Shown here piece by piece: positions 5,019 through 36,868 of a stretch of DNA of 36,868 bases (position 1 is its first letter; every line of letters begins with the position of its first letter). A program made the translations under genes and the position numbers. The notes under the pieces are model-generated. The model was not told where the DNA came from, did no database searches, and saw nothing but the letters and a program-made list of their open reading frames with translations. The stretch is from a virus: the IMG/VR virus record IMGVR_UViG_3300045988_062603. One strand, 5' to 3'.

Positions 5019-5423
5019 ATGGCACTTCTGGAAACCATGAAAAAGGTCGCCAAACAGTCGCAGGACGCGGCCGTTCCGGCGGCCTTCCTTTTTGGAAACG
5101 TGACCGCGACGTCCCCCCTGACGATCCGGGTCGACAACCGCTTCGACATCACCGGCGAAGCGATCGTCGTAATGAAGCAGTTCCGCGCCGGCTACTACCC
5201 GACCCACCAGCATAGCGGATTTAAGAACGCCCCGACCACGGAGCCGAAGGCCGGCGGCGCTGGCGACGCCGCCTTCGCGTCCCACGACCACACACTGAAA
5301 AACGACTACCTGACCAACACCGACGACACGTCCGAATATTATTACGGCCTGGCCGTCGGCGACAAGGTGGTCCTGTTGCGTAACCAGGGCGGACAGTCGT
5401 TCCTGGTCCTGGGAAGGGTGTGA
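5019..5423 (+). CDS. Baseplate spike / DUF2577-like protein (XkdR-like)
   Basis: 134 aa. The N-terminus (FLFGNVTATSPLTIRVDNRFDITGEAIVV) resembles the XkdR/DUF2577 family, and synteny agrees. Confidence 0.6.
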   Translation: MALLETMKKVAKQSQDAAVPAAFLFGNVTATSPLTIRVDNRFDITGEAIVVMKQFRAGYYPTHQHSGFKNAPTTEPKAGGAGDAAFASHDHTLKNDYLTNTDDTSEYYYGLAVGDKVVLLRNQGGQSFLVLGRV

Positions 5424-5427
5424 TCCT

Positions 5428-5856
5428 ATGGCCTTGATTCCGACCCCTTCTGTGGTCACGATCGGCCAGACCGTGACGGTCACGCCGGCGGCCGAACAGC
5501 CGACCAAAACCTACAAGGTGGACTTCGACACCGGCCGCGTCGCTGGCTACGTCGACGAAACCGAAGCTATGAAGCAAGCGATCCTCAAAATCCTGTCGAC
5601 AGAACGGTTCCTGTACCTGATTTATTCCTGGAACTATGGAATCGAACTGAACGCGGTCGTCGGGAAAAGTTATCCGGTGTTTTCAAGTGAAATCAAGCGT
5701 GTAATCACGGAAGCACTTCTGGCGGACAGCCGGATCACCGACGTCACCGACTTCCAGGTCGAGCAGATCGACAAGCGGACCGCCCGCGTCAGCTTCACGG
5801 CGGAAACGATCTTCGGGGAAATCCCCGTTGAAAGGACGGTGACAACCAATGTATGA
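5428..5856 (+). CDS. Baseplate wedge protein, gp25/W-like (XkdS / DUF2634-like)
   Basis: 142 aa. Size and position immediately upstream of the baseplate J-like gene. Confidence 0.6.
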   Translation: MALIPTPSVVTIGQTVTVTPAAEQPTKTYKVDFDTGRVAGYVDETEAMKQAILKILSTERFLYLIYSWNYGIELNAVVGKSYPVFSSEIKRVITEALLADSRITDVTDFQVEQIDKRTARVSFTAETIFGEIPVERTVTTNV

Positions 5857-6928
5857 GAACATGACCTTCGAAAACATCATGGACCGCTGTCTTTCCCGCG
5901 TGTCCGCTTCCGTGGACAAGCGGGAAGGGTCCATCGTCTACGACGCGATCGCGCCGGCGGCGGCGGAACTGGCGATCATGTATATCGAATTAGCCTACCT
6001 TCTGGACCGGGCCTTCCCGGACACCGAAACCGGGGACGACCTGACGAAGAAGTGTCGGGAACGAAGCGTCTTCCGGACGGCCGCAACCTATGCGGTCCGG
6101 AAAGGCTACTTTGAGAAGGCGGACGGGTCCGGCTGTGACCTGGAAATCGGGACCCGGTTTTCTGGCGGCGACATCAACTTCGTCGTGACGGAGCGGATCG
6201 CCGCCGGCCAGTACAGCATGACGGCAGAAACGGCCGGGGTCGTGGGGAATGAGTATGTCGGAACCCTATTCCCGATCGACTACGTCCCGGACCTGGCGGC
6301 CGCGCGCCTGGCGGACATTCTGATCCCCGGCGAAGATGAAGAAAGCGACGACGCCCTTCGCGCCCGCTACTTCGAGTCCCTGGAATCCCAGGCGTTCGGC
6401 GGGAATATCGCGGACTACAAGAACAAGGTCGAACTTCTTCCCGGCGTGGGAGCCGTGAAGGTCTTCCCCGTGTGGAACGGCGGCGGGACCGTGAAGATCG
6501 TCCTGGTGGACAGTGAATGGTCCGTCCCGTCGTCCGAACTGGTCGAGGAAGTCCAGGAAGCGATCGACCCCGTGGGGACCCAGGGGACCGGCGTCGGTCT
6601 GGCCCCGATCGGCCACGTCGTCACAGTCGCCGGCGTCACCGGGACGACGATCGACGTGTCCTTCACGCTGACCTTTTCCGGGTCCGCGTCCTGGACCACC
6701 ACGCAGGAAGCAGTAAAGGCCGCGATCCAGTCCTACTTCGACGACCTGACCCGGACCTGGGCGGACAGCGAAAATCTGATCGTCCGCGTCAGTCAGATCG
6801 AAACGAAGGTCCTGAACGTGGACGGGATCATCGACATCACGGGGACGACGATCAACCAGGGGACCGCGAATATTTCCCTGGACGCCGACGAAATCCCCGT
6901 CCTGGGGGCGGTGACGAATGGAACTTAA
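5849..6928 (+). CDS. Baseplate J-like protein (XkdT-like)
   Basis: 359 aa. The N-terminal region (RVSASVDKREGSIVYDAIAPAAAELA) is typical of the baseplate J family, and synteny agrees. Confidence 0.8.
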   Translation: MYENMTFENIMDRCLSRVSASVDKREGSIVYDAIAPAAAELAIMYIELAYLLDRAFPDTETGDDLTKKCRERSVFRTAATYAVRKGYFEKADGSGCDLEIGTRFSGGDINFVVTERIAAGQYSMTAETAGVVGNEYVGTLFPIDYVPDLAAARLADILIPGEDEESDDALRARYFESLESQAFGGNIADYKNKVELLPGVGAVKVFPVWNGGGTVKIVLVDSEWSVPSSELVEEVQEAIDPVGTQGTGVGLAPIGHVVTVAGVTGTTIDVSFTLTFSGSASWTTTQEAVKAAIQSYFDDLTRTWADSENLIVRVSQIETKVLNVDGIIDITGTTINQGTANISLDADEIPVLGAVTNGT

Positions 6929-7466
6929 AGAATACTGGCCGCGCTACCTTCAAGACCTGATCGAGTTCGACCAGATCGCCGGAGCCGAACAGCCTGAATT
7001 TACACAGGCCGTCCAGGACGTCCAGGGCGCGCCAGACGACTTCTTCCTGGTCAGCCTGTCCGAATATGGCTGTGGACGCTGGGAAGCGATTCTGGGGCTT
7101 GTGGCGGCCCCTGGGGACACCCTGGAAGCGCGCCGCGAAAGAATCCTGATCGCGTACCTGGACCAGCTTCCCTACACATACAGGGCGCTTTTGAAGTATC
7201 TGTCCACGGTCAGCGACGACTTCCAGGTCGTCCTGAACAATGACGCCTATGAACTGTTCATTCGAATCCGCCTGTCCGGACTCACACAGCGGGACGCCCT
7301 GGCGGCGACCCTGGGACAGATGATCCCGGCGAACCTGGTCCTGTTGCTTCAAACGGCGATCCCCCAGGTCGTCCAGAGTCCGCCGACGGTCGTCGGGGCC
7401 GCTATGGTCAATATGATCCGACATGAACACATTCCACAAGGGGGAAACCAAAATGGCACGATTTAA
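6918..7466 (+). CDS. Tail protein, DUF2313 / XkdU-like
   Basis: 182 aa. Overlaps the end of the J-like gene. Canonical slot after baseplate J. Confidence 0.6.
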   Translation: MELKEYWPRYLQDLIEFDQIAGAEQPEFTQAVQDVQGAPDDFFLVSLSEYGCGRWEAILGLVAAPGDTLEARRERILIAYLDQLPYTYRALLKYLSTVSDDFQVVLNNDAYELFIRIRLSGLTQRDALAATLGQMIPANLVLLLQTAIPQVVQSPPTVVGAAMVNMIRHEHIPQGGNQNGTI

Positions 7467-8217
7467 GTCAACGATCACCGACAAGGGCGCGGAAGTCCTG
7501 ACCGCCTTCCTGGCGGCCGGGAAACAGCTTGTCCTGACCAGCGCGGCCGCCGGCGACGGCGTGGCCCAGGTCAGCCCGAACACGCTGACAGCCCTTGTCA
7601 ATCCGATCAATGTGAACACCCAGATCGGCGAAAAGACTTTCGTCGAAAGCAACCCTTCCTATATGCGAATCCCCGTCCAGGTGACGAACGCCGGCCTGGA
7701 AGCGGCCGTATATGTCAGAGAGGTCGCGGTCTACGCCCTGGACGAAAACGAATCGCCCTTCATGTTCAGTTATTCCTGGCTGGACGGCGAAGACAGCGAC
7801 AACATTCTTCCGCCCTGTTCCTTCCAGACCGAAGAAGGTCTGGCCGGCGAGGGCGACACGGTCCACGTCCACGACGTCGCCGTGGTCGTCACGAACCAGG
7901 AAAACAGCGGAATCACCGTGAACGTGGGAAGCGGGTCCTATGTGACCACGGCGCAAATGGTCGCCTATGCGGCCCCGATCGTCCACGGCCACGACGCTTC
8001 CCAGATCGAGGAAACAACCGGCGAAACCGTGGAAGCCGCACAGCGCCGCCAGGACTTCGACATTTCCGCGATCCAGGAACAGCTTGACACCGGCTTCACC
8101 GGGACCACCGTGACCCACACCTTCGCCCCCGCGCAGATCGACCAGTGGAAAGGATATGACGGGACCGGGCTTCCGGAAGGGATTCTGGACACCGTCGATA
8201 ACCGGCTGTATCTGTGA
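7453..8217 (+). CDS. Tail fibre / tail-collar fibre protein
   Basis: ATG 7453 (MARFKSTITDKGAEVLTAFLAAGKQLVLTSAAAGDG) resembles the phage tail-collar fibre N-terminus. The ORF track start at 7423 is less likely. Confidence 0.65.
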   Translation: MARFKSTITDKGAEVLTAFLAAGKQLVLTSAAAGDGVAQVSPNTLTALVNPINVNTQIGEKTFVESNPSYMRIPVQVTNAGLEAAVYVREVAVYALDENESPFMFSYSWLDGEDSDNILPPCSFQTEEGLAGEGDTVHVHDVAVVVTNQENSGITVNVGSGSYVTTAQMVAYAAPIVHGHDASQIEETTGETVEAAQRRQDFDISAIQEQLDTGFTGTTVTHTFAPAQIDQWKGYDGTGLPEGILDTVDNRLYL

Positions 8218-8477
8218 CCCGCTTTGCCTGTACGCCGGCGGAAACGTCTTGCCTATTATCCAACCTGTTCACCGAACTTCGGCCCGTGTGCGGCCGCTGT
8301 GGGGGCGACGCCGTCGTCCTGTGCGGCCTGACCTACGAAGGCGAAGAACGGGCCGTCGTCCTTCGGGACTATGGCTTCGACTATTCCGGCCGGCGCGAAA
8401 CGGTCGAGAGAATCAGGAAACGAAGGTGTATCAATGGGAACCCGGCAAAACTACCAGAGGAATCAGCGGAAGACTGA
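8214..8477 (+). CDS. Hypothetical small Cys-rich protein
   Basis: 87-aa ORF with a GTG start overlapping the fibre stop. Codon usage looks coding-like. Overlaps the avd start by 44 nt. No recognisable family. Confidence 0.35.
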   Translation: MTRFACTPAETSCLLSNLFTELRPVCGRCGGDAVVLCGLTYEGEERAVVLRDYGFDYSGRRETVERIRKRRCINGNPAKLPEESAED

Positions 8478-8919
8478 CGGGGCGGAAAATCCCCTTCACG
8501 TTCTGCCCGTCGCTTCGAATCTGATCGACTACACCCTGAACCTGACCGACAACACGAAGCACTTCCCGAAGAAGGTCCGCTTCACACTGGTCAACCGGAT
8601 TCAGGATCACGTCCTGTCGATCTATGAAAAACTTCTGGCCGCGAATGAAATCTATCCGATCCGGAGCGCAGAAGACAAGGCCCGCCGGCTGACCCTTCAA
8701 CGGGACGCCCTGACGGCCTGTAAAATGCTTCTGTTCTTCATCGAACTTTCGAAGAAGCGCGGCTATATCGACAAGGGGACCTTCGAATACTGGACGAAGA
8801 TCACCCTTGACGTTAAGTTCATGGCCGCCGCCTGGTATAAGGCAGAGCAAGCGCCCGCCGAGAAGGCCGAAAAGGCCGGACCGGAAGGCGCGGAGCCGCC
8901 CGCCCAGGCGGAAGGTTAA
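8434..8919 (+). CDS. avd: DGR accessory variability determinant (four-helix-bundle protein)
   Basis: ATG 8434 is preceded by gaaggtg. A basic N-terminus is followed by a helical pattern (HFPKKVRFTLVNRIQDHVLSIYEKLLAANE...LLFFIELSKKRGYI) typical of Avd / S23-like four-helix bundles. It ends 22 nt upstream of the TR. Confidence 0.8.
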   Translation: MGTRQNYQRNQRKTDGAENPLHVLPVASNLIDYTLNLTDNTKHFPKKVRFTLVNRIQDHVLSIYEKLLAANEIYPIRSAEDKARRLTLQRDALTACKMLLFFIELSKKRGYIDKGTFEYWTKITLDVKFMAAAWYKAEQAPAEKAEKAGPEGAEPPAQAEG

Positions 8920-8940
8920 TGATATTAGGGTATGATCTGT

Positions 8941-9041
8941 AACCCCGAACGCCGGCAACGCGAACAACGTCCGCAACGTCAATTCCGACGGCAACCTGAA
9001 CAACAACAACGCCTGGAATGGCAACAACGGCGTTCGCCCGG
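8941..9041 (+). repeat. DGR template repeat (TR), non-coding and rich in AAC/AAT codon-equivalents
   Basis: 101-nt match to 10914-11014 and to 23428-23528. Every mismatch falls on a TR adenine. Read in the VR frame, it gives TPNAGNANNVRNVNSDGNLNNNNAWNGNNGVRP. Confidence 0.95.
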
Positions 9042-9209
9042 ATTTGGTGGAAAACGTGACCGAGTAAGGCGACGAGCCTGAAAGCAGAGGACCCCAACAA
9101 AGGAGATCATATCCTTCCCGACGCCGGAAAGGCCAGGGTAAACACATGATTGTCGACGCGAGGGCTTCGGCTTTACGACGCCCGGACTGTAAGCGGCAAG
9201 GAGCATTTT

Positions 9210-10334
9210 ATGAACAACGAACTGAACCCGCCGACCGGCTTTGAAGTCATGGCCGACTTCAATCGGCTTTATTCGGCCTACCTGGAATCCAGAAAGGGAA
9301 AACGGTGGAAATGTGCCGTCGTCCGCTTCGAAGTGAATGTCCTGGAAAATATCATGTTCCTTCACTTCATGCTGACGAAGCACAAATACCGCCCGTCGCC
9401 CTACAACTATTTCCTGGTCCACGAGCCGAAGGAACGCCTGATCATGTATAACGGCTTCCGTGACAAGATCATTCAGCATAGCCTGTGCGACAACGTCCTG
9501 GGGCCGCTTCTATCGAAGACGTTCATTTATGACAACTACGCCAGTCAGAAGGGCAAGGGAACACACTTCGGCCTGGATCGTCTGAAATCGTTCATGCAAC
9601 GGTATTACAGACAGTTCGGGGCGGACGGCTGGGTCTTGAAGTGTGATATAAGCAAATACTTTTACAGAATCAATCACGACGTTTTGAAGTCACAGCTTCG
9701 TCGAGTCATTCACGACCCCGACGTTCTGTGGCTTCTTGATTTGATCATCGACTCCACCGACGGGCCGGGAATCCCGATCGGGAATCACACTTCACAGTGG
9801 TTCGCGATCCTGTACCTGTCCGGAATGGATCACATGATCAAGGAACGTCTGGGAATCAAGTTCTACGGCCGTTATATGGACGACTTTTATCTGATCCACC
9901 CGGACAAGGAATATTTGCTTTACTGTCTGGAAGAAATCAGAAAGTTCCTGGTCCCGCTGGGGCTGGAACTGAATCACAAGACGGCCGTGTTTCCGCTGTC
10001 CCAGGGGATCGACTTCCTGGGCTTCCGGACGTACATGACGGACAGCGGAAAAGTCGTCCGCAAACTACGCCGTGAAAGCAAGAACCGAATCAGGCGGAAA
10101 TTGAAGAAGTTCCGTCACCTTCTGGACGAAGGGCGGATCACCTTCGAAACTGTGGTCCAGTCTTATTCTTCCTGGGTCGGCCACGCCGCACACGGCAACA
10201 GCTACCGCCTGATCAGGAACACGGACGAACTGTTCTACGACCTGTTCAGAAAAGAAATGGGGGAATATCATGTCAAAACAACTGTCGACGCTTCCCGTCG
10301 GCGCGATCGTGAAGTCGGTCAACACGAAGTATAA
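9210..10334 (+). CDS. DGR reverse transcriptase
   Basis: ATG 9210 follows RBS gcaaggag. Carries the YMDD catalytic box (GRYMDDFYLIH) and the DGR-clade motif IGNHTSQ (I/LGxxxSQ). Lies directly downstream of the TR. Confidence 0.92.
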   Translation: MNNELNPPTGFEVMADFNRLYSAYLESRKGKRWKCAVVRFEVNVLENIMFLHFMLTKHKYRPSPYNYFLVHEPKERLIMYNGFRDKIIQHSLCDNVLGPLLSKTFIYDNYASQKGKGTHFGLDRLKSFMQRYYRQFGADGWVLKCDISKYFYRINHDVLKSQLRRVIHDPDVLWLLDLIIDSTDGPGIPIGNHTSQWFAILYLSGMDHMIKERLGIKFYGRYMDDFYLIHPDKEYLLYCLEEIRKFLVPLGLELNHKTAVFPLSQGIDFLGFRTYMTDSGKVVRKLRRESKNRIRRKLKKFRHLLDEGRITFETVVQSYSSWVGHAAHGNSYRLIRNTDELFYDLFRKEMGEYHVKTTVDASRRRDREVGQHEV

Positions 10335-11976
10335 CGGCGCTGTGATCCGCTTCAAGGTCGGCCGCCAGGCGTCGGACCGCGTGGGCCTGGTAACGGAACG
10401 AATCATTTCCCTGAAATGCTTCGACGCGAAGGAGCCGTCCAACTCCAACAGCGACCGCCGGAACTACGGCAACAACCGCGCGGCCGTGGCGAATCTGCTT
10501 CAATGGCTGAACAGCGCCGCCGGGACCGGCCAGTGGTACAGCGCACAGCACAGCGCGGACGCGCCGCCCAACAACGCGAACGTCTGGTCCAACTACAACG
10601 AATACGAGGCGGAAGCCGGCTTCCTGAACGGCTTCGAACAGGACTTCCGGGACGCCCTTCTGAACGACACGATCACCGTCGCGAAGTCCAGCACTGACGG
10701 CGGCGGTTCGGAGCAGATCACGCGGAAGGTCCGCCTGTTGACCCGGACAGAGGTCTTCGGCGACACAGAGAACGGCACCGCCGAGGGGACCAAGTGGCCC
10801 ATCTTCACCGACAACAACAGCCGCCTTGCATACCCGACCGCCGAAGCGGTCAGCAAGTCGGAATACAAGACTTCCAGTCTGTCGTCTTCACAGCCCTGGT
10901 GGTGGTGGCTTCTCACCCCGAACGCCGGCAACGCGCACTACGTCCGCTACGTCTATTCCGGCGGCGGCCTGAGCAGCTACGGCGCCTGGGATGGCAGCAG
11001 CGGCGTTCGCCCGGCTTTGTTTTTGGCCCCTGACACCCTGGTATCCGATACAACGGACACCGACGGGGCTTATATCATTCAGTGGAATCAGCCGCCCACG
11101 ACCCCGTCGTCCATTTCCCACGGGACCCCGCGCGCCGGCCAGTCCTTGACGATCACGACCGGCGGGTCCACCGACCCCGAAGGCGACGCGATCAGTTATG
11201 TCTGGGAACGCCGGGTCGATTCCGGGGCCTACACCCAGATCGGGATCACGACCGCGAAGTCCATCGTCGACACGGTCCCGTCGAGCGGGACGAACTACCA
11301 GGTCCGCGTGAAGGCGGTCGACGCCAACGGCGCGGAATCCGCATACCGGACCGGGAACGCGACGCCCATTTCCTACAATACGGACCCGGTAATCAGCGGA
11401 AGCGATCAAAACCTGGGCGCAAAAACTGACCCGTTCACCTACGACTACACCGTCACGGACAGCGAAGCGGCGTCCCAGACCTTGACCGTCACGGAAACCG
11501 TGACCAACGGGACCGAAACGATCACCCTTCGGACCTACACGGCCACGAGCGGGACCCAGAACACGGCGGACCTGTCCGACGTATGGCTTCGGCTTCTGAC
11601 CGGGTCCCACGTCCTGAAAATCTACGTCACCGACGGAGCCGGCGGAAGCGCGACCCGGCTGATCACGTTCAGCCGTACCGTCACCCGGATCGCCGCGTCC
11701 CGCGCGATCGCCACGGACGCGAAGATCGAAAAGGTCTTCCTGTCCCTGTACCCGGCGGATCACCCGGCCGACGCGACCCTTCATGTCGAGGTCACGAACA
11801 ACCCGTTCGACGACAGCCCCGTCTGGGAAGACATCACAAGCAAGGTCGGGAAGTTCGTCCATACCTTCACGAACACGACCGTCGTGTCGTCTTCCTACGG
11901 CCTGGCCTATCGGTTCTACATGACAAAGGGAACCCAGGAAATCGAAGTGATCCAGGCGACCGTTCGGTTTGCCTAA
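10270..11976 (+). CDS. DGR target protein 1, probably a tail-associated receptor-binding protein
   Basis: 568 aa. N-terminal ~250 aa end in WWWWLLTPNAGNAHYVRYVYSGGGLSSYGAWDGSSGVRPALF, which is VR1. This is followed by FN3/Ig-like beta-rich segments (DPEGDAISYVWERR...YQVRVKAVDANGAES). The start overlaps the RT end by 65 nt. Confidence 0.9.
   Translation: MSKQLSTLPVGAIVKSVNTKYNGAVIRFKVGRQASDRVGLVTERIISLKCFDAKEPSNSNSDRRNYGNNRAAVANLLQWLNSAAGTGQWYSAQHSADAPPNNANVWSNYNEYEAEAGFLNGFEQDFRDALLNDTITVAKSSTDGGGSEQITRKVRLLTRTEVFGDTENGTAEGTKWPIFTDNNSRLAYPTAEAVSKSEYKTSSLSSSQPWWWWLLTPNAGNAHYVRYVYSGGGLSSYGAWDGSSGVRPALFLAPDTLVSDTTDTDGAYIIQWNQPPTTPSSISHGTPRAGQSLTITTGGSTDPEGDAISYVWERRVDSGAYTQIGITTAKSIVDTVPSSGTNYQVRVKAVDANGAESAYRTGNATPISYNTDPVISGSDQNLGAKTDPFTYDYTVTDSEAASQTLTVTETVTNGTETITLRTYTATSGTQNTADLSDVWLRLLTGSHVLKIYVTDGAGGSATRLITFSRTVTRIAASRAIATDAKIEKVFLSLYPADHPADATLHVEVTNNPFDDSPVWEDITSKVGKFVHTFTNTTVVSSSYGLAYRFYMTKGTQEIEVIQATVRFA
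10914..11014 (+). repeat. DGR variable repeat 1 (VR1)
   Basis: Aligns with TR 8941-9041 without gaps. All 16 mismatches are at TR adenines, and none are at C, G or T. Confidence 0.95.
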
Positions 11977-11994
11977 CAGAAAGGGGGAAACGCT

Positions 11995-12465
11995 ATGTTC
12001 AATCCGGAACAGTGTGACTTTGTCAGCATGGCCGAAGCGAAGGAACGCGAGAAACAGAACCCGGCGGCGGAAACCGCCAGGGCGGCTTCGATCGCCTTCG
12101 TGGCGCTTGCGGAGTCCGGCCAGATCGACGACGTGACCGCTTCGGAAAACGTCAGTCAGTTCAGCCCGTGGGCCTACCCCGTGGCGTATGCCGTCGGCAA
12201 TATCCGCGCCTACGGGGGCGAACTTTACCGCTGTAACCAGGCCCACACATCGCAAGCGGACTGGACGCCGCCGGCAACGCCGGCCCTGTGGTCGAAGATC
12301 GCCGATCCGTCCGTGGAATGGCCCGAATGGTCCCAACCGCTGGGCGCACACGACGCCTATGACTACGGCGACAAGGTCGCCCACAACGGGAAACACTGGA
12401 CTTCTGACCTGGACGGGAACGTCTGGGAACCCGGCGTCTACGGCTGGACAGAAGTGTCGGAGTAA
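11995..12465 (+). CDS. Carbohydrate-binding protein with two CBM5/12 (chitin-binding type 3)-like repeats
   Basis: Two repeats of the pattern Y.G..Y.C.QAHTSQ..W.P....LW: GELYRCNQAHTSQADWTPPATPALWSKI and GDKVAHNGKHWTSDLDGNVWEPGVYGWTEV. Confidence 0.6.
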   Translation: MFNPEQCDFVSMAEAKEREKQNPAAETARAASIAFVALAESGQIDDVTASENVSQFSPWAYPVAYAVGNIRAYGGELYRCNQAHTSQADWTPPATPALWSKIADPSVEWPEWSQPLGAHDAYDYGDKVAHNGKHWTSDLDGNVWEPGVYGWTEVSE

Positions 12466-12487
12466 CCCAGAAAGGAGATCGACGCCA

Positions 12488-12727
12488 GTGACAGAAGGGA
12501 TTCTGATCGCCGTCCTGTCCCTTCTGGGGACCCTGGGCGGTTCGTATTTTGCCAACAAGAAAAGTTCCGCGCTGATCGCCTACCGGCTGGAAGAACTGGA
12601 AAAGAAGGTCGACAAACACAATTCGGTGATCGAAAGGACGTACAGCCTGGAAGAAGCCCAGGCCGTGATCGAGGAAAAGATCAAAGTCGCGAATCATCGG
12701 ATCGACGACCTGGAAAAGAAGACATGA
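12488..12727 (+). CDS. Membrane-anchored coiled-coil lysis accessory protein (XhlA-like)
   Basis: GTG 12488 follows RBS aaaggag. An N-terminal TM helix is followed by YRLEELEKKVDKHNSVIERTYSLEE. Sits immediately upstream of the holin genes. Confidence 0.5.
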   Translation: MTEGILIAVLSLLGTLGGSYFANKKSSALIAYRLEELEKKVDKHNSVIERTYSLEEAQAVIEEKIKVANHRIDDLEKKT

Positions 12728-12990
12728 GCGGACGGCGTGAACAGAAGCGCGAGTTTTCCAAAATCATCATTTCCACCGTGGGGGCGGTCACGATCATCGT
12801 GACCGCCTTCACGCTGGTCATGGTATGGAGAACCGGCGACACGTCGCCCCTTGCGTATTTGATCCCGGCCGTCTTCACGGAAACGGCGGCCGCGACCGGC
12901 TTCTATTACAGCAAGGCGAAAGCAGAAAACCGGATCAAACTTCGGAAGAAGTACGGTCCCGAAATCTACAATGACACAAAAGAACTGTAA
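12724..12990 (+). CDS. Putative holin (two transmembrane helices)
   Basis: 88 aa with two hydrophobic helices and a charged C-terminus. ATGA overlap with the upstream gene. Lies in the lysis cassette. Confidence 0.55.
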   Translation: MSGRREQKREFSKIIISTVGAVTIIVTAFTLVMVWRTGDTSPLAYLIPAVFTETAAATGFYYSKAKAENRIKLRKKYGPEIYNDTKEL

Positions 12991-13008
12991 CGAAAGGAAT
13001 GAAAGAAC

Positions 13009-13377
13009 ATGAACGCTGAACAGATTATTTCCGTGGTCGTCGCTATCCTGACCGGCCTGTCCGCCTGTATTCCCCTGGCCTACAAGCTGATCCAGTACGT
13101 CAAGAAGGCGACACAGGAAAAGAACTGGGCCGCCCTTCTGGGGCTTGTGATCAGCCTTATGGAAGAAGCGGAAACGAAGTTCACCGACGGGGCAACCCGG
13201 AAGGAATGGGTCATGGCTATGGTCCAGACTTCCGCCGAGTATATCAACTATCCCGTTGACGTTACGGCCCTGGGCGAACTGATCGACGCCCTGTGTGACA
13301 TGACGAAGGTCGTCAACTTCGAGGAAATCCCGGTGATCGAGCCTGTAAAGGGGGAAACCGACAATGATGAAAAGTAA
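13009..13377 (+). CDS. Holin, LL-H-family-like
   Basis: 122 aa. Has a single N-terminal TM helix and then a soluble helical region ([21 protein letters not shown]) resembling LL-H holins. Confidence 0.55.
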
Positions 13378-14302
13378 AACCTTTATCGAAAAACTGATCG
13401 ACGCGGCCCAGAATCACAAAACCCTGTACGTCATGGGGTGCTTCGGCGCGCCTATGACGGCCGCCAATAAGACCAGGTACACCCAGAATCACAGCTACAA
13501 CAAACAGGCGGCCCGGACCGCTATGATCAAGGCCGCCAGCGCCGACACCTTCGGTTTTGACTGTGTCTGTCTGATCAAGGGGATTCTGTGGGGCTGGATC
13601 GGCGACAAGTCGAAGACCTACGGCGGCGCGGTCTACGCTTCGAACGGCGTCCCCGACATCGGGGCCGACAGCATGATCGGCAAGTGTAAGAACGTGTCGA
13701 CCGGGAACTGGGGGAACATGACCCCCGGCGAAGCCCTGTGGGTCCCCGGCCACATCGGCGTCTATATCGGCGACGGCCTGGCCGTGGAGTGTTCCCCGGC
13801 CTTCGAAAACGACGTCCAGATCACGGCCGTCGGAAACATCGGCAAGAAGGCCGGCTACGCCGGCTACAATACCCGGACCTGGCAGAAACACGGCCGCCTT
13901 CCCTATGTCGACTATTCCGACGCCGGCGGAAGCGCGACCGTCGTGACCCCGCCCGCCAGCGGCGGCGAAACCGTCTACACCGTGAAGAAGGGCGACACCC
14001 TGTCCGCGATCGCGGCGAAGTACGGGACCACCTACCAGGAGATCGCCGCCTACAACGGGATCGCAAACCCGAACCCGATCCGCGTCGGCCAGAAGATCAA
14101 GATTCCGGCCGCGACCGCGCCGGAGTCCTTCGAAAAGGGGGACAAGGTGAAGGTCCTGAACGCCGTCACCTATGACGGGAAGTCCTTCAAGACTTACTAT
14201 GACACCTACGACGTGATCCAGGTCAACGGCGACCGCGTCGTGATCGGCGTCGGCGCGACCGTCACGGCCGCCGTCAACGCGGTGAACCTTCGCAAAGCGT
14301 AA
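13364..14302 (+). CDS. Endolysin: NlpC/P60-like cysteine peptidase with LysM and SH3-like domains
   Basis: Cys motif [13 protein letters not shown] and His motif [15 protein letters not shown]. LysM motif [45 protein letters not shown]-terminal SH3-like segment [18 protein letters not shown]. Confidence 0.75.
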
Positions 14303-14335: not shown

Positions 14336-14827
14336 GTGGGCGTAAAGAAAGAAGACCTTGTCCGCTGGATCGGCGGCCTGGAAACCCTGAAAGACGACGT
14401 CCCGGAAATCATGTCCCAGATCGCCGTCGGCGAAGGCCAGTACGCCGTCCGCCAGGCGCGCCTGATCTGCAAGAACGACAGCCCGGACATCGTCAATACC
14501 GGCGACTACCGCCGGAACTGGAAGTCCGACAAGACGGCCAGGCGGAGCGGGAAACGCTATATCGTCCGATTTTACAATCCGCTTGACTATGCGAGTCACC
14601 TTGAACACGGCTTCCGAAGTCACTTCGTCCCTGGTCACTGGGAAGGGAACACCTTCGTCTATAACCGGGACGACCCGGAAGGCGGAATGTTCGTCGGCCC
14701 GAAGGGCGGTTACGTCCGGGGACACTTCACCATGAAGCGCGCCGCGAAGAAGACGAAGGATTCCCAACAGGCCAGAGTGTCCCGCAAGATCACGCGGGAG
14801 ATCAACAAGCGAATGAAGACGAAGTAA
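14336..14827 (+). CDS. HK97 gp10-family head-tail joining protein, displaced from the neck module
   Basis: GTG start after aaaggggg. Motifs NTGDYRRNW and YASHLEHGFRSH match the gp10-family pattern (TG.L..s...YA..vE.G). Confidence 0.6.
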   Translation: MGVKKEDLVRWIGGLETLKDDVPEIMSQIAVGEGQYAVRQARLICKNDSPDIVNTGDYRRNWKSDKTARRSGKRYIVRFYNPLDYASHLEHGFRSHFVPGHWEGNTFVYNRDDPEGGMFVGPKGGYVRGHFTMKRAAKKTKDSQQARVSRKITREINKRMKTK

Positions 14828-16260: not shown

Positions 16261-17304
16261 ATGAAGAAGCGCAGATTCAAACACCTGTCCTGGAACGACC
16301 GCCTTCGGATCGAATCGTTCCTGAAATGTGGGAAGCGGGTCCAGGAGATCGCCGACGAAATCGGCGTCCACCGGAACACGATCTACAACGAACTGAAACG
16401 GGGCCGGTATATCCACCGAAATTCGGACTGGACCGAAGAAGAACGGTATAGCCCGGACATAGCCGAAGCCGCATACCGGGAAAACCTGGCCGCGAAGGGG
16501 CCTGGCCTGAAAATCGGCAAGGATCACCGCCTGGCCGCGTACATCGAACGCCGGATCGTCGAAGACGGCTATTCCCCGGCCGCCGTCCTGGGCGAAATCA
16601 AGGTCAAGGGAATCCGGTTCGACACGACGATCTGTGAAGCGACCCTGTATTCCTACATCAAGAAGGGCGTGTTCCTGACACTGGAAGCCGCCCACCTTCC
16701 CCGCCAGGGCATGAAGAAGCGCCAATACAAGAAGGTCAAGAAGACGGCCGCCAGGCCGTCGGCCGGCCGGAGCATAGAAAAGAGGTCCCCGGAGATCGAC
16801 GACCGCGCGGAGATCGGACACTGGGAAATGGACTGTGTCGAAGGCAAGAAGAAGACGAAGGAAACCCTTCTGGTCCTGACGGAGCGGAAGGCCCGGAAGG
16901 AAATCATGGTCAAAATGAAGGACAAGACCACCGGAAGCGTCGTCGCCGCCCTGGACCGCCTTGAACGCAGATACGGAAAACTGTTCAGCAAAGTATTTCA
17001 AACGATAACAGTTGATAACGGGACAGAGTTTTCGGACGTCGCGGGCCTGGAACGGTCCTGTCTGCACAAAGGGAAGCGGACGACCGTCTTTTACTGTCAC
17101 CCCTATTCTTCCTATGAGCGAGGGACCAATGAGAACACGAACGGAATGATCCGGCGCTGGTTCCCGAAAGGAACCGACTTCGGGAAGGTGACGGCGAAGT
17201 CGATCCAGGCCGTCGAAGACTGGCTGAACGCATACCCGCGCGGGATTCTGGGCTTCCGCTGTGCCGACGACGTCTTCGCCGAAGCCCTGGCCGCCCTGGT
17301 CTAA
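16261..17304 (+). CDS. IS30-family DDE transposase, apparently intact
   Basis: N-terminal HTH (EIADEIGVHRNTIYNELKRG). DDE signature blocks GHWEMDCVEG, ITVDNGTEF and YERGTNENTNGMIRRWFPKG. Confidence 0.85.
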   Translation: MKKRRFKHLSWNDRLRIESFLKCGKRVQEIADEIGVHRNTIYNELKRGRYIHRNSDWTEEERYSPDIAEAAYRENLAAKGPGLKIGKDHRLAAYIERRIVEDGYSPAAVLGEIKVKGIRFDTTICEATLYSYIKKGVFLTLEAAHLPRQGMKKRQYKKVKKTAARPSAGRSIEKRSPEIDDRAEIGHWEMDCVEGKKKTKETLLVLTERKARKEIMVKMKDKTTGSVVAALDRLERRYGKLFSKVFQTITVDNGTEFSDVAGLERSCLHKGKRTTVFYCHPYSSYERGTNENTNGMIRRWFPKGTDFGKVTAKSIQAVEDWLNAYPRGILGFRCADDVFAEALAALV

Positions 17305-22614: not shown

Positions 22615-23022
22615 ATGAAGTACAAACTGACGATCCCCGGCCTGTTGCCGGGGCTGAACGAATACATCGACGCGGAGCGGTCCCACAAGGGCAAATACAA
22701 GGCCGCTTCCATGAAGCGCCAGGCCCAGAACGTGATCGGCTACATGATCCGGACACAGCTTCGCGGCGTCCGCTTCACCCGGCCTGTGGTGATCCGCTAC
22801 CTGTGGATCGAACCGTCCCGCCGGCGCGATAAGGACAATATCGCCTTCGCGAAGAAGTTCATTCAGGACGCCCTGGTCGAAACCGGCGTCCTTCGGAATG
22901 ACGGCTGGTCCGAAATCGAAGGATTCACGGACAACTTCGCCCTGGACCCGAAGAACCCCCGCGTCGAAGTCACGATCGAAGAAATGGAAGGAGTAAGGCG
23001 AAATGGTAAAAGAAAAAATTAA
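22615..23022 (+). CDS. RusA-family Holliday junction resolvase
   Basis: The motif RRRDKDNIAFAKKFIQDALVETGVLRNDGW matches the RusA D.DN..K...D pattern. Confidence 0.6.
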   Translation: MKYKLTIPGLLPGLNEYIDAERSHKGKYKAASMKRQAQNVIGYMIRTQLRGVRFTRPVVIRYLWIEPSRRRDKDNIAFAKKFIQDALVETGVLRNDGWSEIEGFTDNFALDPKNPRVEVTIEEMEGVRRNGKRKN

Positions 23023-23680
23023 GAACCTGGCCCCTGGGGCCTTCTTCAACGCCGGCCCCGCCGTCGTGACCGTCCTGGAACACTTCGCAGACGGCCGAAC
23101 CCTTCTGGCCGCGAAGGAGCCGATCGGGAACCGCCCCTTCACCGTCCGGCCGTTCACCTATAACCGGACGGACCCGGAGCCGAACCCGAACAACTTCGCG
23201 TTTTCTTCCCTTCGCTACGACCTGAACACCGACTTCCTGGACGCCCTGAACGACGCCGGCGTGATCCCGGCCGACAAGGTCCTGGAAGCCGAATGGAGCC
23301 TGGCGGACCACGACGGAACGAACCGTTATGGCGTCGCCGTCTGCAAGATCGCTATGTTGCCCGAACCCCTGGTCCGGAAGTATTACGAAGCGGGCCTTCT
23401 CACGATCGACGACTGGGAGTGGACGATCACCCCGCACGCCGGCTACGCGAACTACGTCCGCGGCGTCTATTCCGACGGCAACCTGGACAGCGACGACGCC
23501 TGGATTGGCTACGGCGGCGTTCGCCCGGCTTTCTTCGTGGATTCTGAAATCTGCCTGTTCCTGGAACCGGACGAAGTCGAACTGTCTGACGCCGCCCTGT
23601 TGCGTGAATTTACTTCGAAACAGCTTGCGGACGAAGTTCTTCGCCGGATCGCCGCCGGCGAGGACGACGAAGACGAATGA
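23003..23680 (+). CDS. DGR target protein 2; small, non-structural context
   Basis: 225 aa. Contains VR2 (WEWTITPHAGYANYVRGVYSDGNLDSDDAWIGYGGVRPAFF). Its N-terminal region parallels the variable domain of target 1. Acidic C-terminal tail. RBS ggaaggag. Confidence 0.9.
   Translation: MVKEKIKNLAPGAFFNAGPAVVTVLEHFADGRTLLAAKEPIGNRPFTVRPFTYNRTDPEPNPNNFAFSSLRYDLNTDFLDALNDAGVIPADKVLEAEWSLADHDGTNRYGVAVCKIAMLPEPLVRKYYEAGLLTIDDWEWTITPHAGYANYVRGVYSDGNLDSDDAWIGYGGVRPAFFVDSEICLFLEPDEVELSDAALLREFTSKQLADEVLRRIAAGEDDEDE
23428..23528 (+). repeat. DGR variable repeat 2 (VR2), remote from the cassette
   Basis: Aligns with TR 8941-9041 without gaps. All 15 mismatches are at TR adenines. It shares the identical 14-nt 3' element cggcgttcgcccgg with the TR and VR1. 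Confidence 0.95.
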
Positions 23681-35933: not shown

Positions 35934-36868
35934 ATGCCTATCGGTGGCGGAACTTTTACCACACAGAACAAGATCCTTCCCGGCGCGTATATCAACTTCG
36001 TCAGCCTGGGAAGCGTCGTCAAAATGGGGACGCGCGGGATCGCGGCCCTTCCCCTGGAACTGAACTGGGGACCTGAAAACAAGGTCTTTTCCATCTACGC
36101 CGAGGACTTCAACAAGACCGCCCTGACCGTATTCGGCTATGATCCCACGGCGGCCGACATTCTTCTGGTCCGCGAAGCCTTGAAACGCGCCAGGACCCTT
36201 CTGATCTACCGCGTCAATTCCGGCGGCACGAAGGCGACCGCGACCGTGGGCGGAATGACCGTCACGGCCGCCTATGGCGGAACGCGCGGGAGCGCGATCA
36301 GCGTCGCGATCCTGACCAACGCCGACGACGCGACGAACGTCGACGTCGTGACCTACCTTGACGGAATGGTCGTGGACACCCAGACCGTCGCGAAGACCAG
36401 CGGGTCGGCCAACCTGAAAGCGAACGACTTCGTCACCTTCGGGAGCGCGGCGAGCCTGGAAGCGGCCGTCGCGACCACCCTGACCGGCGGCACGAACGGA
36501 ACCGTCAACGGCGCGGCCCACACGGCGGCCCTGAACGGCTTCGAAGTGGAGTCCTTCAACGTGATCGGCTATCCCGGCGACGACGACACGATCAAGGCCC
36601 TGTATTCGACCTTCGTGAAGCGCCTTCGCGACGACGAAGGGAAGAAGATCGTCGGCGTCCTGTACGACTACAAGGGGAACAACATCGGCCTGATCAACGT
36701 GAAGAACGGCGTCGTCCTGACCGACGGGACCACCGTCACCGGCGACAAAGCCGTCGCGTGGGTGGCTGGCGCTTCCGCCGGCGCGGAGATCAACGAAAGC
36801 CTGACGAATACCGCCTACGACGACGCCGTGGACGTGGACATCAAATATACGAAGTCCCAGTTCGAAGC
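35934..36868 (+). CDS. Phage tail sheath protein, N-terminal part; runs off the window end and continues at 56
   Basis: ATG 35934. MPIGGGTFTTQNKILPGAYINFVS is a classic sheath N-terminus. There is no stop before the window end. Joined with 56-455 the protein is about 444 aa. Confidence 0.9.
   Translation, partial: MPIGGGTFTTQNKILPGAYINFVSLGSVVKMGTRGIAALPLELNWGPENKVFSIYAEDFNKTALTVFGYDPTAADILLVREALKRARTLLIYRVNSGGTKATATVGGMTVTAAYGGTRGSAISVAILTNADDATNVDVVTYLDGMVVDTQTVAKTSGSANLKANDFVTFGSAASLEAAVATTLTGGTNGTVNGAAHTAALNGFEVESFNVIGYPGDDDTIKALYSTFVKRLRDDEGKKIVGVLYDYKGNNIGLINVKNGVVLTDGTTVTGDKAVAWVAGASAGAEINESLTNTAYDDAVDVDIKYTKSQFE
36814..36868. repeat. Terminal direct repeat, right copy (identical to 1-55)
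   Basis: Exact 55-nt identity with the start of the window. Confidence 0.95.

Follow-up and report, generated by a model that had tools for sequence, protein, structure and literature searches.

A diversity-generating retroelement with one template repeat and two DUF6273 targets in a phage of probable Oscillospiraceae hosts

The window analysed here is the whole stretch of 36,868 nt in IMG/VR virus record IMGVR_UViG_3300045988_062603, and the phage genome that it represents is a circle of 36,813 bp. It contains a diversity-generating retroelement (DGR) whose parts are listed in Table 1. An avd gene, a template repeat (TR), a reverse transcriptase (RT) gene and a target gene were found in this order, all on the + strand, as described in an earlier note based on the sequence alone. 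That note was right on the TR, the first variable repeat (VR1), the RT and avd, but its coordinates omitted a second target, which carries a second variable repeat (VR2). No close relative of the phage was found in the INPHARED phage collection, and the lineage is also found as an integrated prophage.

Table 1. Positions of the DGR components and of both target genes in the window
Feature	Position	Strand	Description
Small Cys-containing ORF (87 aa)	8214..8477	+	overlaps avd start; phrog_21058, E 1e-22
avd (161 aa)	8434..8919	+	phrog_3206 'Avd protein of DGR', E 4e-29
TR	8941..9046	+	diversifying core ~8942-9041; 12 AAC and 2 AAT codon equivalents
Spacer, TR to RT	9042..9209	+	non-coding; presumed 3' part of DGR RNA
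DGR RT (374 aa)	9210..10334	+	IGNHTSQ and YMDD; AAGGAG precedes ATG
Target 1 (568 aa)	10270..11976	+	N-terminal DUF6273 (residues 40-253), then Ig-like domains
VR1	10914..11019	+	residues 215-249 of target 1; 16 TR mismatches, all at TR adenines
Target 2 (225 aa)	23003..23680	+	single DUF6273 domain, C-terminal helices, acidic tail
VR2	23428..23528	+	residues 143-176 of target 2; read in the VR1 frame

The RT ORF is intact, and the two motifs previously noticed in it, YMDD and the IGNHTSQ of 'IPIGNHTSQ', are both present. Its product matched the profiles RVT_1 (E 1e-15) and phrog_1423 (E 4e-134). Its best match among solved structures was PDB 8ub7, with 152 bits (E 2e-43), compared to 45-48 bits for group II/retron-type RTs; the residues of 8ub7 in this alignment are those of Brt from Bordetella phage BPP-1. 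Identity to Brt itself is 32% (E 2e-49), IGNHTSQ being aligned with the IGSLTSQ of Brt. By these scores the protein groups with DGR RTs, and no clustering with retron, group II or Abi RTs was seen. Assignment to group II RTs was rejected, the best NCBIfam match, group_II_RT_mat, scoring 98.8 bits where the cut-off is 300; scores for the models of Drt, retron and AbiA were below this value, each well under its cut-off of 200-550.

An Avd-like gene next to the TR, also proposed earlier, is confirmed by the phrog_3206 match. It lies 22 nt upstream of the TR, as in phage nd4, and its product is 33% identical to the nd4 protein in the same position. Scores were below the curated cut-offs of Pfam bAvd (20 vs 40 bits) and NCBIfam DivGenRetAVD (31 vs 80 bits), and BLAST gave no similarity to BPP-1 Bbp7. 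The small ORF at the start of avd is 34% identical to the nd4 ORF directly upstream of avd; this ORF is conserved beside the cassette, and its membership in the DGR is uncertain. In the spacer between TR and RT, two blocks are conserved, CAAAGGAG (9098-9105) and TAAACACATGA (9139-9149). Using an alignment of 20 distinct spacers, RNAalifold and pair counts, we found that covariation supports three putative RNA helices, 9117-9119/9136-9138, 9150-9155/9194-9199 and 9162-9165/9180-9183. Paired cells represented 88.8% of the counts, versus 76% in shuffles, and the covariation score was 0.41, versus 0.17 in shuffled alignments (0/500 reached 0.41) and 0.06-0.15 in slid controls.

Every count of the earlier note for the repeats (TR/VR1 mismatches, codons and non-A positions) was reproduced. 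TR 8941-9041 and VR1 10914-11014 align over 101 nt without any indel and with 16 mismatches, each of them at a TR adenine. Adenines account for 31 TR positions and other bases for 70, and none of the latter is mismatched in either VR; the hypergeometric probability that 16 out of 16 VR1 mismatches fall on A is 1.9e-10. Read in the VR frame, which is closed upstream by a TGA, the TR has 14 AAC/AAT codons, and its adenines are found at codon positions 1 (15 adenines) and 2 (16), with only one at position 3. Sequence and population data together indicate that the randomised codons are the fourteen AAC/AAT and one GAC, the scaffold residues being faithfully copied.

A search with equal mismatch penalties extended the repeat to 9046/11019. 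The A-to-C difference at 8941, which was counted in the earlier note, is identical in VR1 and VR2, and an A-to-C difference at 9042, just beyond the interval of that note, is likewise common to both. Since, in addition, the encoded residues are invariant among the 103 target 2 homologues described below, we consider these two sites as fixed boundary differences and not as products of mutagenesis. The last 13 nt of the TR core (9029-9041) form a G+C-rich block, GGCGTTCGCCCGG, which ends TR, VR1 and VR2 identically. The TR continues with an A and each VR with a C, which there encodes an Ala invariant in the 103 homologues. This end and the base difference after it would be compatible with an IMH/IMH* boundary. 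The 89-nt DNA 3' of each VR folds no more stably than shuffled sequences (z = -0.12 and -0.76), and a search for a promoter-like site for the TR RNA found none.

VR2 was found by scanning the whole window with the TR. Its 15 mismatches are all at adenines, with none at non-A positions (P = 1.0e-9). It is located 14.5 kb (14,487 nt) downstream of the TR and 12.5 kb beyond VR1, or equally, round the 36,813-bp circle, 22,326 nt upstream of the TR. Sequence and population data show that a single TR supplies both targets, which are read in one frame, and that a short stretch of each of these two presumed binding proteins of the phage is rewritten at adenine-templated positions.

VR1 and VR2 belong to homologous domains, and their likeness runs a few codons past the match with the TR, as might be expected if the repeats were a paralogous DUF6273 motif in which point mutation or gene conversion, and not reverse transcription, had produced the differences. 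However, one of the three copies, the TR, is non-coding and adjoins the RT gene, and 31 of 31 differences fall on TR adenines against 0 on the 70 other positions. The same bias was found in 48 related loci, defined as RT-related IMG/VR loci with a TR/VR pair at the same spacing and compared ungapped with equal mismatch penalties: 645 of their 670 TR/VR mismatches are on TR adenines, which leaves 25 for the other bases. Our first pattern scan demanded identity at non-A positions, and was therefore blind to VRs with non-A changes; the unbiased scan with equal penalties closes this blind spot for VR1 only. Adenine-only differences are not a product of point mutation or gene conversion, so that paralogous divergence is effectively refuted, and we give it almost no credence.

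We then compared the DGR with its relatives, in which the TR was invariant and the VRs varied, as anticipated in the earlier note; the opposite situation, a polymorphic TR with fixed VRs, was not seen. Among five close relatives, whose RTs are 98-99% identical, the cassette is almost unchanged and the TR shows 0 differences in four, whereas VR1 differs at 10-21 positions per 106 nt, with 27 of the 28 variable columns at TR-adenine positions. VR2 copies from three relatives are each unlike the others and unlike the window's copy. A larger sample was available for target 2: among 103 near-identical homologues, only the 14 AAC/AAT-templated residues vary, with an entropy of 2.0-3.1 bits, compared to 0.08 bits elsewhere in the protein. 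Tyr, Asn, Asp, Gly and Ser are the commonest residues at these 14 sites. Trp is present at residue 163 in 34 of the 103, and sister TRs have TGG there, as predicted if non-A bases are copied faithfully. No VR peptide occurs twice among the 103, although the proteins are otherwise about 99% identical, which requires very recent and repeated diversification in the lineage.

These data bear on whether the element is a fossil, a copy with recognisable parts which has ceased to mobilise and whose VR/TR differences arose long ago. The failure to detect a promoter-like site or a VR-flanking hairpin goes in this direction, as does one related contig whose VR2 fits a foreign TR and not the resident one, indicating that VRs can persist unrewritten. 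But the RT ORF is uninterrupted and retains its catalytic motifs, relatives combine the same TR and an almost invariant cassette with VRs that are all different, and no two VR2 peptides among the 103 homologues are alike. We consider a fossil element highly improbable, and from the between-genome differences we infer activity of the window's own copy. Very probably, the locus is a functional-type DGR and its carrier a temperate, myovirus-like gut phage, complete and circular, whose host is of the Oscillospiraceae type.

Relatives also bear on the origin of the cassette. The earlier note saw more A/T-ending codons in the RT gene, and read them as a hint of horizontal acquisition. The first point is weakly upheld, the GC3 of the RT gene being 0.696 for a genome mean of 0.770 (sd 0.053), with two other genes lower and one equal. 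As a hint of acquisition, this codon usage is not significant. Separately from codon usage, modular exchange is shown by relatives in which the cassette is nearly identical while the flanks differ by 5-10%.

Target 1 has a DUF6273 domain (E 1e-28), matches phrog_10993 over its full length (E 3e-201), and aligns end to end, C-terminal domain included, with the nd4 and nd12 proteins nd4_tgt1 and nd12_tgt1. We classify it as tentaclin-type, with a predicted DUF6273/C-lec N-terminal domain bearing the VR. VR1 covers residues 215-249 of 568, hence part of the first half, and borders the C-terminal end of DUF6273; placing it at a C-terminal tail-fibre tip was rejected. Further downstream, residues 367-515 match a 'tail fiber protein' of solved structure (31he, E 4e-6), with an Ig-like match also to 2yhg and a sub-threshold match to Big_9. 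Compared to PDB, the DUF6273 target domain had as sole significant match the DUF6273 domain of an IgA peptidase; canonical C-type lectins reached a probability of 0.12 or less, so that their fold was not significantly recovered. Target 2 matches phrog_9958 (E 4e-42) and the C-terminal part of DUF6273, and its AlphaFold2 model has a mean pLDDT of 93.8. Both targets are probably ligand-binding, and their varied surface would consist of a beta-hairpin and flanking loops.

The functions of the two targets may differ. One proposal, about function and not mechanism, is that target 1 is a Hoc-like capsid-decoration adhesin for mucus or non-host ligands, target 2 being the true receptor-binding protein. 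The full-length match is to a family, phrog_10993, named 'Hoc-like head decoration', and target 1 has an architecture, a lectin-like head carried by successive Ig-like domains, which has been discussed as a capsid decoration or adhesin (PMC10743442, PMC11792537). Against this, the target 1 gene directly follows the RT and ends the tail module, lying between the tail-fibre gene and the lysis genes, its Ig-like region matches the solved tail fiber protein named above, and the name of a PHROG is an annotation and tests nothing. No match of target 1 to a Hoc structure or Pfam family was found, and only the phrog_10993 name suggests capsid binding of the T4 Hoc type. For target 2, a receptor-binding role, assumed without evidence in published work, is not expected from a gene among replication genes. 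We regard this distribution of roles as possible, while leaning against it.

Target 2 could instead be a diversified binding protein absent from the virion, made early with the replication/recombination genes and active within infected or lysogenic cells. Its gene is in the replication/recombination module; its start overlaps the end of a RusA-like gene, and its stop the start of the next gene. In the window, nd4 and nd12, which represent three divergent lineages, and in one prophage, its neighbours are replication, recombination or DNA-methylase genes and not structural ones, and in the window and the integrated prophage it comes directly after DnaC-like and RusA-like genes. Inspection of the N-terminus found no obvious signal peptide or membrane segment. 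Such neighbours, the gene overlaps and the lack of an obvious signal peptide leave room for an intracellular role, which we nevertheless judge unlikely. An example of its prey would be a variable host or competitor factor.

Whatever the ligands, the mechanism can be proposed by homology to BPP-1. The TR and the structured spacer would be transcribed as a single RNA, from which the RT with Avd would make a cDNA of the TR, misincorporating opposite template adenines. This cDNA would replace the homologous variable repeats, homing being guided by the G+C-rich GGCGTTCGCCCGG at their common 3' end and by the VR-specific bases after it. The BPP-1 element (mtd-avd-TR-brt) and the window share a homologous RT with equivalent [I/L/V]GxxxSQ and YMDD motifs, an Avd-family gene directly upstream of the TR, a spacer of ~150 nt between TR and RT, adenine-only mismatches and AAC codons. 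They differ in that the BPP-1 target is upstream of avd, with its VR at the extreme C-terminus of Mtd, whereas the main target of the window is downstream of the RT and a second one exists. BPP-1 also has a VR-flanking hairpin, a feature that not every DGR possesses and of which none was detected in the window, and neither sequence nor profile similarity was found between Mtd and the window targets.

Much closer systems are the two-target DGRs of the gut phages nd4 and nd12, which combine a tentaclin with tgt2 (Baykov et al. 2023, PMC10743442; GenBank OR777945, OR777946). As in the window, a small ORF, avd, TR, RT and tentaclin follow each other in that order in a small myovirus-type genome of about 36 kb, and a second VR is found ~12 kb further, in a small DUF6273-only protein of the early/replication region. 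The TR-to-VR1 spacing is 1973 nt in the window and 1987 nt in nd12. Over its full length, target 1 has 43-44% identity to nd12_tgt1 and nd4_tgt1; for target 2, identity to nd4_tgt2 and nd12_tgt2 is 30-33%. The phage lineage is nevertheless different, blastn detecting only the TR-RT stretch (67-70% identity), the probable host of the window phage is a bacterium of the Oscillospiraceae, and the TR sequence and repertoire differ, with 31 adenines in the window versus 25 (nd4) and 28 (nd12) as reported. The same gene order with a remote second target was reported for the Toutatisvirus DGR hotspot (bioRxiv 10.1101/2024.10.15.618418) and for Faecalibacterium phages Lelie and CP11 (PMC11792537). By description, these resemble the window in having two DUF6273 targets of unequal size, whose VR is placed at the C-terminal edge of that domain; the larger, annotated Hoc-like, is downstream of the RT, and the smaller is remote, in the core genome. 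The second VR of Toutatisvirus is reported 17,480 nt upstream of the TR, whereas VR2 of the window is downstream.

The DGR is therefore genuine, but the type "tentaclin plus small second target" was already described in 2023, and since such DGRs with a small DUF6273 second target have been known from 2023-2024, the locus adds little as a discovery. Its value is that of an unusually clean and abundant natural example of a two-target DGR. More than a thousand public copies of target 2 exist, differing almost only at the 14 templated residues, and they constitute a ready-made data set on the residues favoured by selection. As the lineage is present as an integrated prophage, the location and ligands of both targets are testable in culture.

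The order avd-TR-RT-target ORF described in the earlier note for this diversity-generating retroelement (DGR) was reproduced, with the same coordinates (see table). In an ungapped comparison of the template repeat (TR) with VR1, the variable repeat of target 1, we again found 16 mismatches, all at TR adenines and none at the 70 other positions. With 31 A among the bases of the TR, the hypergeometric probability that 16 of 16 mismatches fall on A is 1.9e-10. Realignment with an equal penalty for all mismatches recovered the same pair, extended to 9046/11019. The 14 AAC/AAT codon equivalents reported for the TR in the VR frame were counted as 12 AAC and 2 AAT. TR adenines occupy codon positions 1 and 2 in this frame (position 3 once only), so that every change alters the protein.

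The description of the DGR as having a single target was incomplete: the cassette and VR1 stand, but a second target had been missed. Scanning the whole window with mismatches tolerated at adenines revealed a third copy of the repeat, VR2, with 15 A mismatches and 0 non-A mismatches to the TR, and with the codon frame of VR1. The 225-aa ORF that holds VR2 (target 2) aligns full-length with phrog_9958; its DUF6273 match is to the C-terminal part of that domain. It begins inside the 3' end of a RusA-like gene, and its stop codon overlaps the start codon of the following gene. At 8941 and 9042, both VRs have C for the A of the TR; the codons concerned encode Ile142 and Ala176 of target 2, invariant in 103 homologues, and we take both differences to be fixed ones at the repeat boundary. 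Position 9042, just after the shared GGCGTTCGCCCGG block, is where the distinction between the VR-type and TR-type elements of the repeat 3' end (IMH and IMH*) would be expected to lie. Hairpins flanking the VRs were not significant, and a promoter/terminator scan around the cassette gave matches no commoner than in shuffles.

Features of the DGR and of the surrounding phage genome
Feature	Position	Strand	Remarks
Terminal identity	1-55 = 36814-36868		exact
Baseplate J	5849-6928		contractile-tail module
Tail-fibre gene	7423-8217		directly before small ORF/DGR cassette
87-aa ORF	8214-8477	+	phrog_21058; contains Cys; overlaps avd start
avd	8434-8919	+
49-aa ATG ORF	8932-9081	+	crosses TR; frame differs from VR frame
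TR	8941-9041	+
Spacer helix	9117-9119/9136-9138
Spacer helix	9150-9155/9194-9199
Spacer helix	9162-9165/9180-9183
RT	9210-10334	+
Target 1 ORF	10270-11976	+	contains VR1
VR1	10914-11014
CBM_5_12 protein	11995-12465	+	156 aa; two CBM_5_12 carbohydrate-binding modules; directly 3' of target 1
Endolysin	13364-14302
ORF	14336-14827	+	'tail completion/Neck1' family match
Transposase-like recombinase	16261-17304	+	phrog_4646
Target 2 ORF	23003-23680		contains VR2
VR2	23428-23528
Terminase	28648-29919		with portal, major head protein

The RT matches RVT_1 and phrog_1423 (E 4e-134). Compared directly with Brt, the RT of the reference DGR of Bordetella phage BPP-1, it is 32% identical (E 2e-49), with IGNHTSQ aligned to IGSLTSQ and YMDD to YMDD. 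Among solved structures 8ub7 was the best match by far (152 bits), so that the DGR-type Brt/8ub7 is much nearer than the group II (48 bits) and retron-type (45 bits) RTs that had been considered as alternatives. Matching residues in the RT/8ub7 and RT/Brt alignments suggest that 8ub7 is the Bordetella RT; a literature search on this PDB code found nothing. NCBIfam has no DGR-RT model, and the RT scores far under the threshold of all its RT families. The richness of the RT gene in A/T-ending codons, previously taken as a hint of horizontal acquisition, is weakly true (GC3 0.696 for a genome mean of 0.770, sd 0.053; two genes are lower and one equally low), but codon usage was ruled out as evidence of transfer, because the RT is just 1.4 sd under the mean.

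Avd matches phrog_3206 'Avd protein of DGR' (E 4e-29) and is 33% identical to the protein at the same position in gut phage nd4. It falls below curated Pfam and NCBIfam cut-offs, and no match was obtained against PDB sequences, or by BLAST against Bbp7, the Avd of BPP-1. The 87-aa ORF, 34% identical to the nd4 ORF directly upstream of avd, may be either a DGR accessory gene not yet characterised or the final gene of the tail module. The 49-aa ORF is probably not a gene; a similar small CDS is annotated over the nd4 TR in GenBank. In target 1, DUF6273 spans residues 40-253 (E 1e-28), VR1 encodes residues 215-249 at the C-terminal edge of this domain, and ~320 residues of Ig-like domains follow. 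Its PHROG label is 'Hoc-like', yet the gene ends the tail module and the Ig-like region is similar to a tail-fibre protein of solved structure.

Evidence that the DGR works came from its relatives. Scanning IMG/VR with the TR pattern, each A being replaced by N, detected copies of TR, VR1 and VR2 on seven related contigs. In 4 of 5 contigs the TR has no change; every VR is unique and departs from the TR at 13-21 of the adenines. Since this pattern is blind to non-A changes, the test was repeated by an RT-based search (57 loci), followed by an ungapped TR/VR search with equal penalties. A TR upstream and a VR ~1.97 kb downstream were present at 48 of the 57 loci, with 645 mismatches at TR adenines versus 25 elsewhere. 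Between the window and its five closest relatives, the cassette (~8600-11800) is almost invariant (0-1 differences per 200 nt at best); the TR has 0 differences in 4 of 5, VR1 has 10-21, and 27 of its 28 variable columns are TR-adenine positions. This is the opposite of a polymorphic TR with fixed VRs, the contrary pattern named in the earlier note.

Target 2 has 1270 database relatives, the best 120 of which are all 88-93% identical to it. When 103 homologues were aligned, the 14 AAC/AAT-templated residues had an entropy of 2.0-3.1 bits, versus an average of 0.08 at other positions, and all 103 VR peptides were different. The variable positions are mostly occupied by Tyr, Asn, Asp, Gly and Ser. 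Trp, which AAC cannot yield, occupies residue 163 in 34 of the 103, because in the TRs of sister lineages (loci L020, L022 and L053) the run CTG-AAC-AAC-AAC-AAC has its second AAC replaced by TGG. On these sequences, TR evolution shifts which residues get randomised. On contig IMGVR_UViG_3300045988_011435 (loci L018/L005), from a close relative, the TR has two A-to-T changes at the equivalents of 9023 and 9026 (GGCAACAAC to GGCTACTAC), and VR1 has two non-A mismatches. So the TR itself drifts now and then, in this contig at adenine positions.

AlphaFold2 gave a model of target 2 with mean pLDDT 93.8 from 81 diverse representatives, as opposed to a pLDDT of just 37 from the 103 homologues, which are nearly identical. 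On the former model, VR2 maps to a predicted beta-hairpin (strands 151-155 and 161-165) and adjacent loops. Foldseek against the PDB gave a sole significant match, the DUF6273 N-terminal domain of a Thomasclavelia IgA peptidase (E 1e-6), canonical C-type lectins appearing at low probability only; against viral models, it gave many DUF6273 proteins and one DUF1566 protein (E 5e-4). The C-lec assignment of the literature is thus compatible with these searches, yet not established by them. The target 2 family profile has no similarity to Mtd, the BPP-1 target. The target 2 gene consistently sits among the early/replication genes, which leaves room for a non-virion role.

The 168-nt spacer between TR and RT start is conserved even at 59-78% RT identity. 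RNAalifold and explicit pair counts gave three helices, with 88.8% of cells paired versus 76% in shuffles, and a covariation score of 0.41, where shuffles give 0.17 (none of 500 as high) and slid controls 0.06-0.15. The minimum-free-energy fold of the spacer alone was not better than shuffles (z = 0.25); support for the structure comes solely from covariation across relatives. In BPP-1, the TR-spacer RNA templates and also primes cDNA synthesis, and by analogy the present spacer would be a functional 3' part of the DGR RNA. It matches no Rfam family and has no visible similarity to the BPP-1 spacer.

By blastn the cassette matches, among others, phages nd4 and nd12, from which Baykov et al. 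defined 'tentaclins' and the small DUF6273-only second target (PMC10743442). The order small ORF-avd-TR-RT-tentaclin is the same in all three phages. TR-to-VR1 spacing is 1973 nt in the window, 1987 nt in nd12 and 2073 nt in nd4, and VR1-to-VR2 spacing 12,514, 12,113 and 9,656 nt, respectively. Identity to the window proteins is 43% (nd12) and 44% (nd4) for target 1, and 30% and 33% for target 2. Similar two-target DUF6273 layouts have been reported in Faecalibacterium phages Lelie and CP11 (PMC11792537), and in a Toutatisvirus hotspot (bioRxiv 10.1101/2024.10.15.618418). The original DGR call is right in observation and interpretation, to be widened by VR2 and the spacer RNA, and the DGR is of an already described kind, a tentaclin with a small DUF6273 second target.

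The terminal overlap of 55 nt shows that the window is a circularly closed assembly; its 36,813 bp of unique sequence apparently make up an entire phage genome. Nearly all its long ORFs are on the + strand. On a map drawn from PHROG and Pfam matches, a PBSX/Mu-like contractile-tail module (tail tube, XkdN-like protein, tape measure, baseplate J, gp48-like protein) and the tail-fibre gene precede the cassette, and the location first given, the "tail-fibre region", is therefore accurate. The CBM_5_12 protein, holin-like ORFs and the endolysin follow; the 'tail completion/Neck1' match is apart from the structural module, downstream of the endolysin. The replication side comprises Erf-like, replication initiator, DnaC-like ATPase and RusA-like genes, target 2 and an MT-A70-type DNA methylase. 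Rfam and tRNA scans of the window found nothing. No close relative was found in the GenBank phage collection when 16 kb of the genome was compared with it by megablast; the lineage is abundant in metagenome assemblies, and RT relatives are located in MAGs of Oscillospiraceae, Oscillibacter and other Clostridia. The sole recombinase-like gene is of transposase type, not a typical integrase; still, the phage is found integrated adjoining Asp23/Dak2-type genes on a 264-kb scaffold (L072).

In relatives such as L014, the cassette of the window (8600-11800) is matched almost exactly, with 0-1 differences per 200 nt, whereas the 5200-8500 flank (baseplate and tail genes) differs by 5-10% and the 11800-14300 flank (CBM_5_12 and lysis region) is highly divergent, a pattern indicative of a recombination boundary at either end of the cassette. 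The CBM_5_12 gene is among the most divergent stretches across close relatives. Contig IMGVR_UViG_3300045988_030564 has its own, different TR, matched by its VR1 (L045). Its VR2 (L009) fits a window-type TR, with 15 A and 1 non-A mismatches, versus 17 non-A mismatches to the resident TR; it would be either an assembly chimera or an orphan that came by module exchange and has stayed unrewritten.
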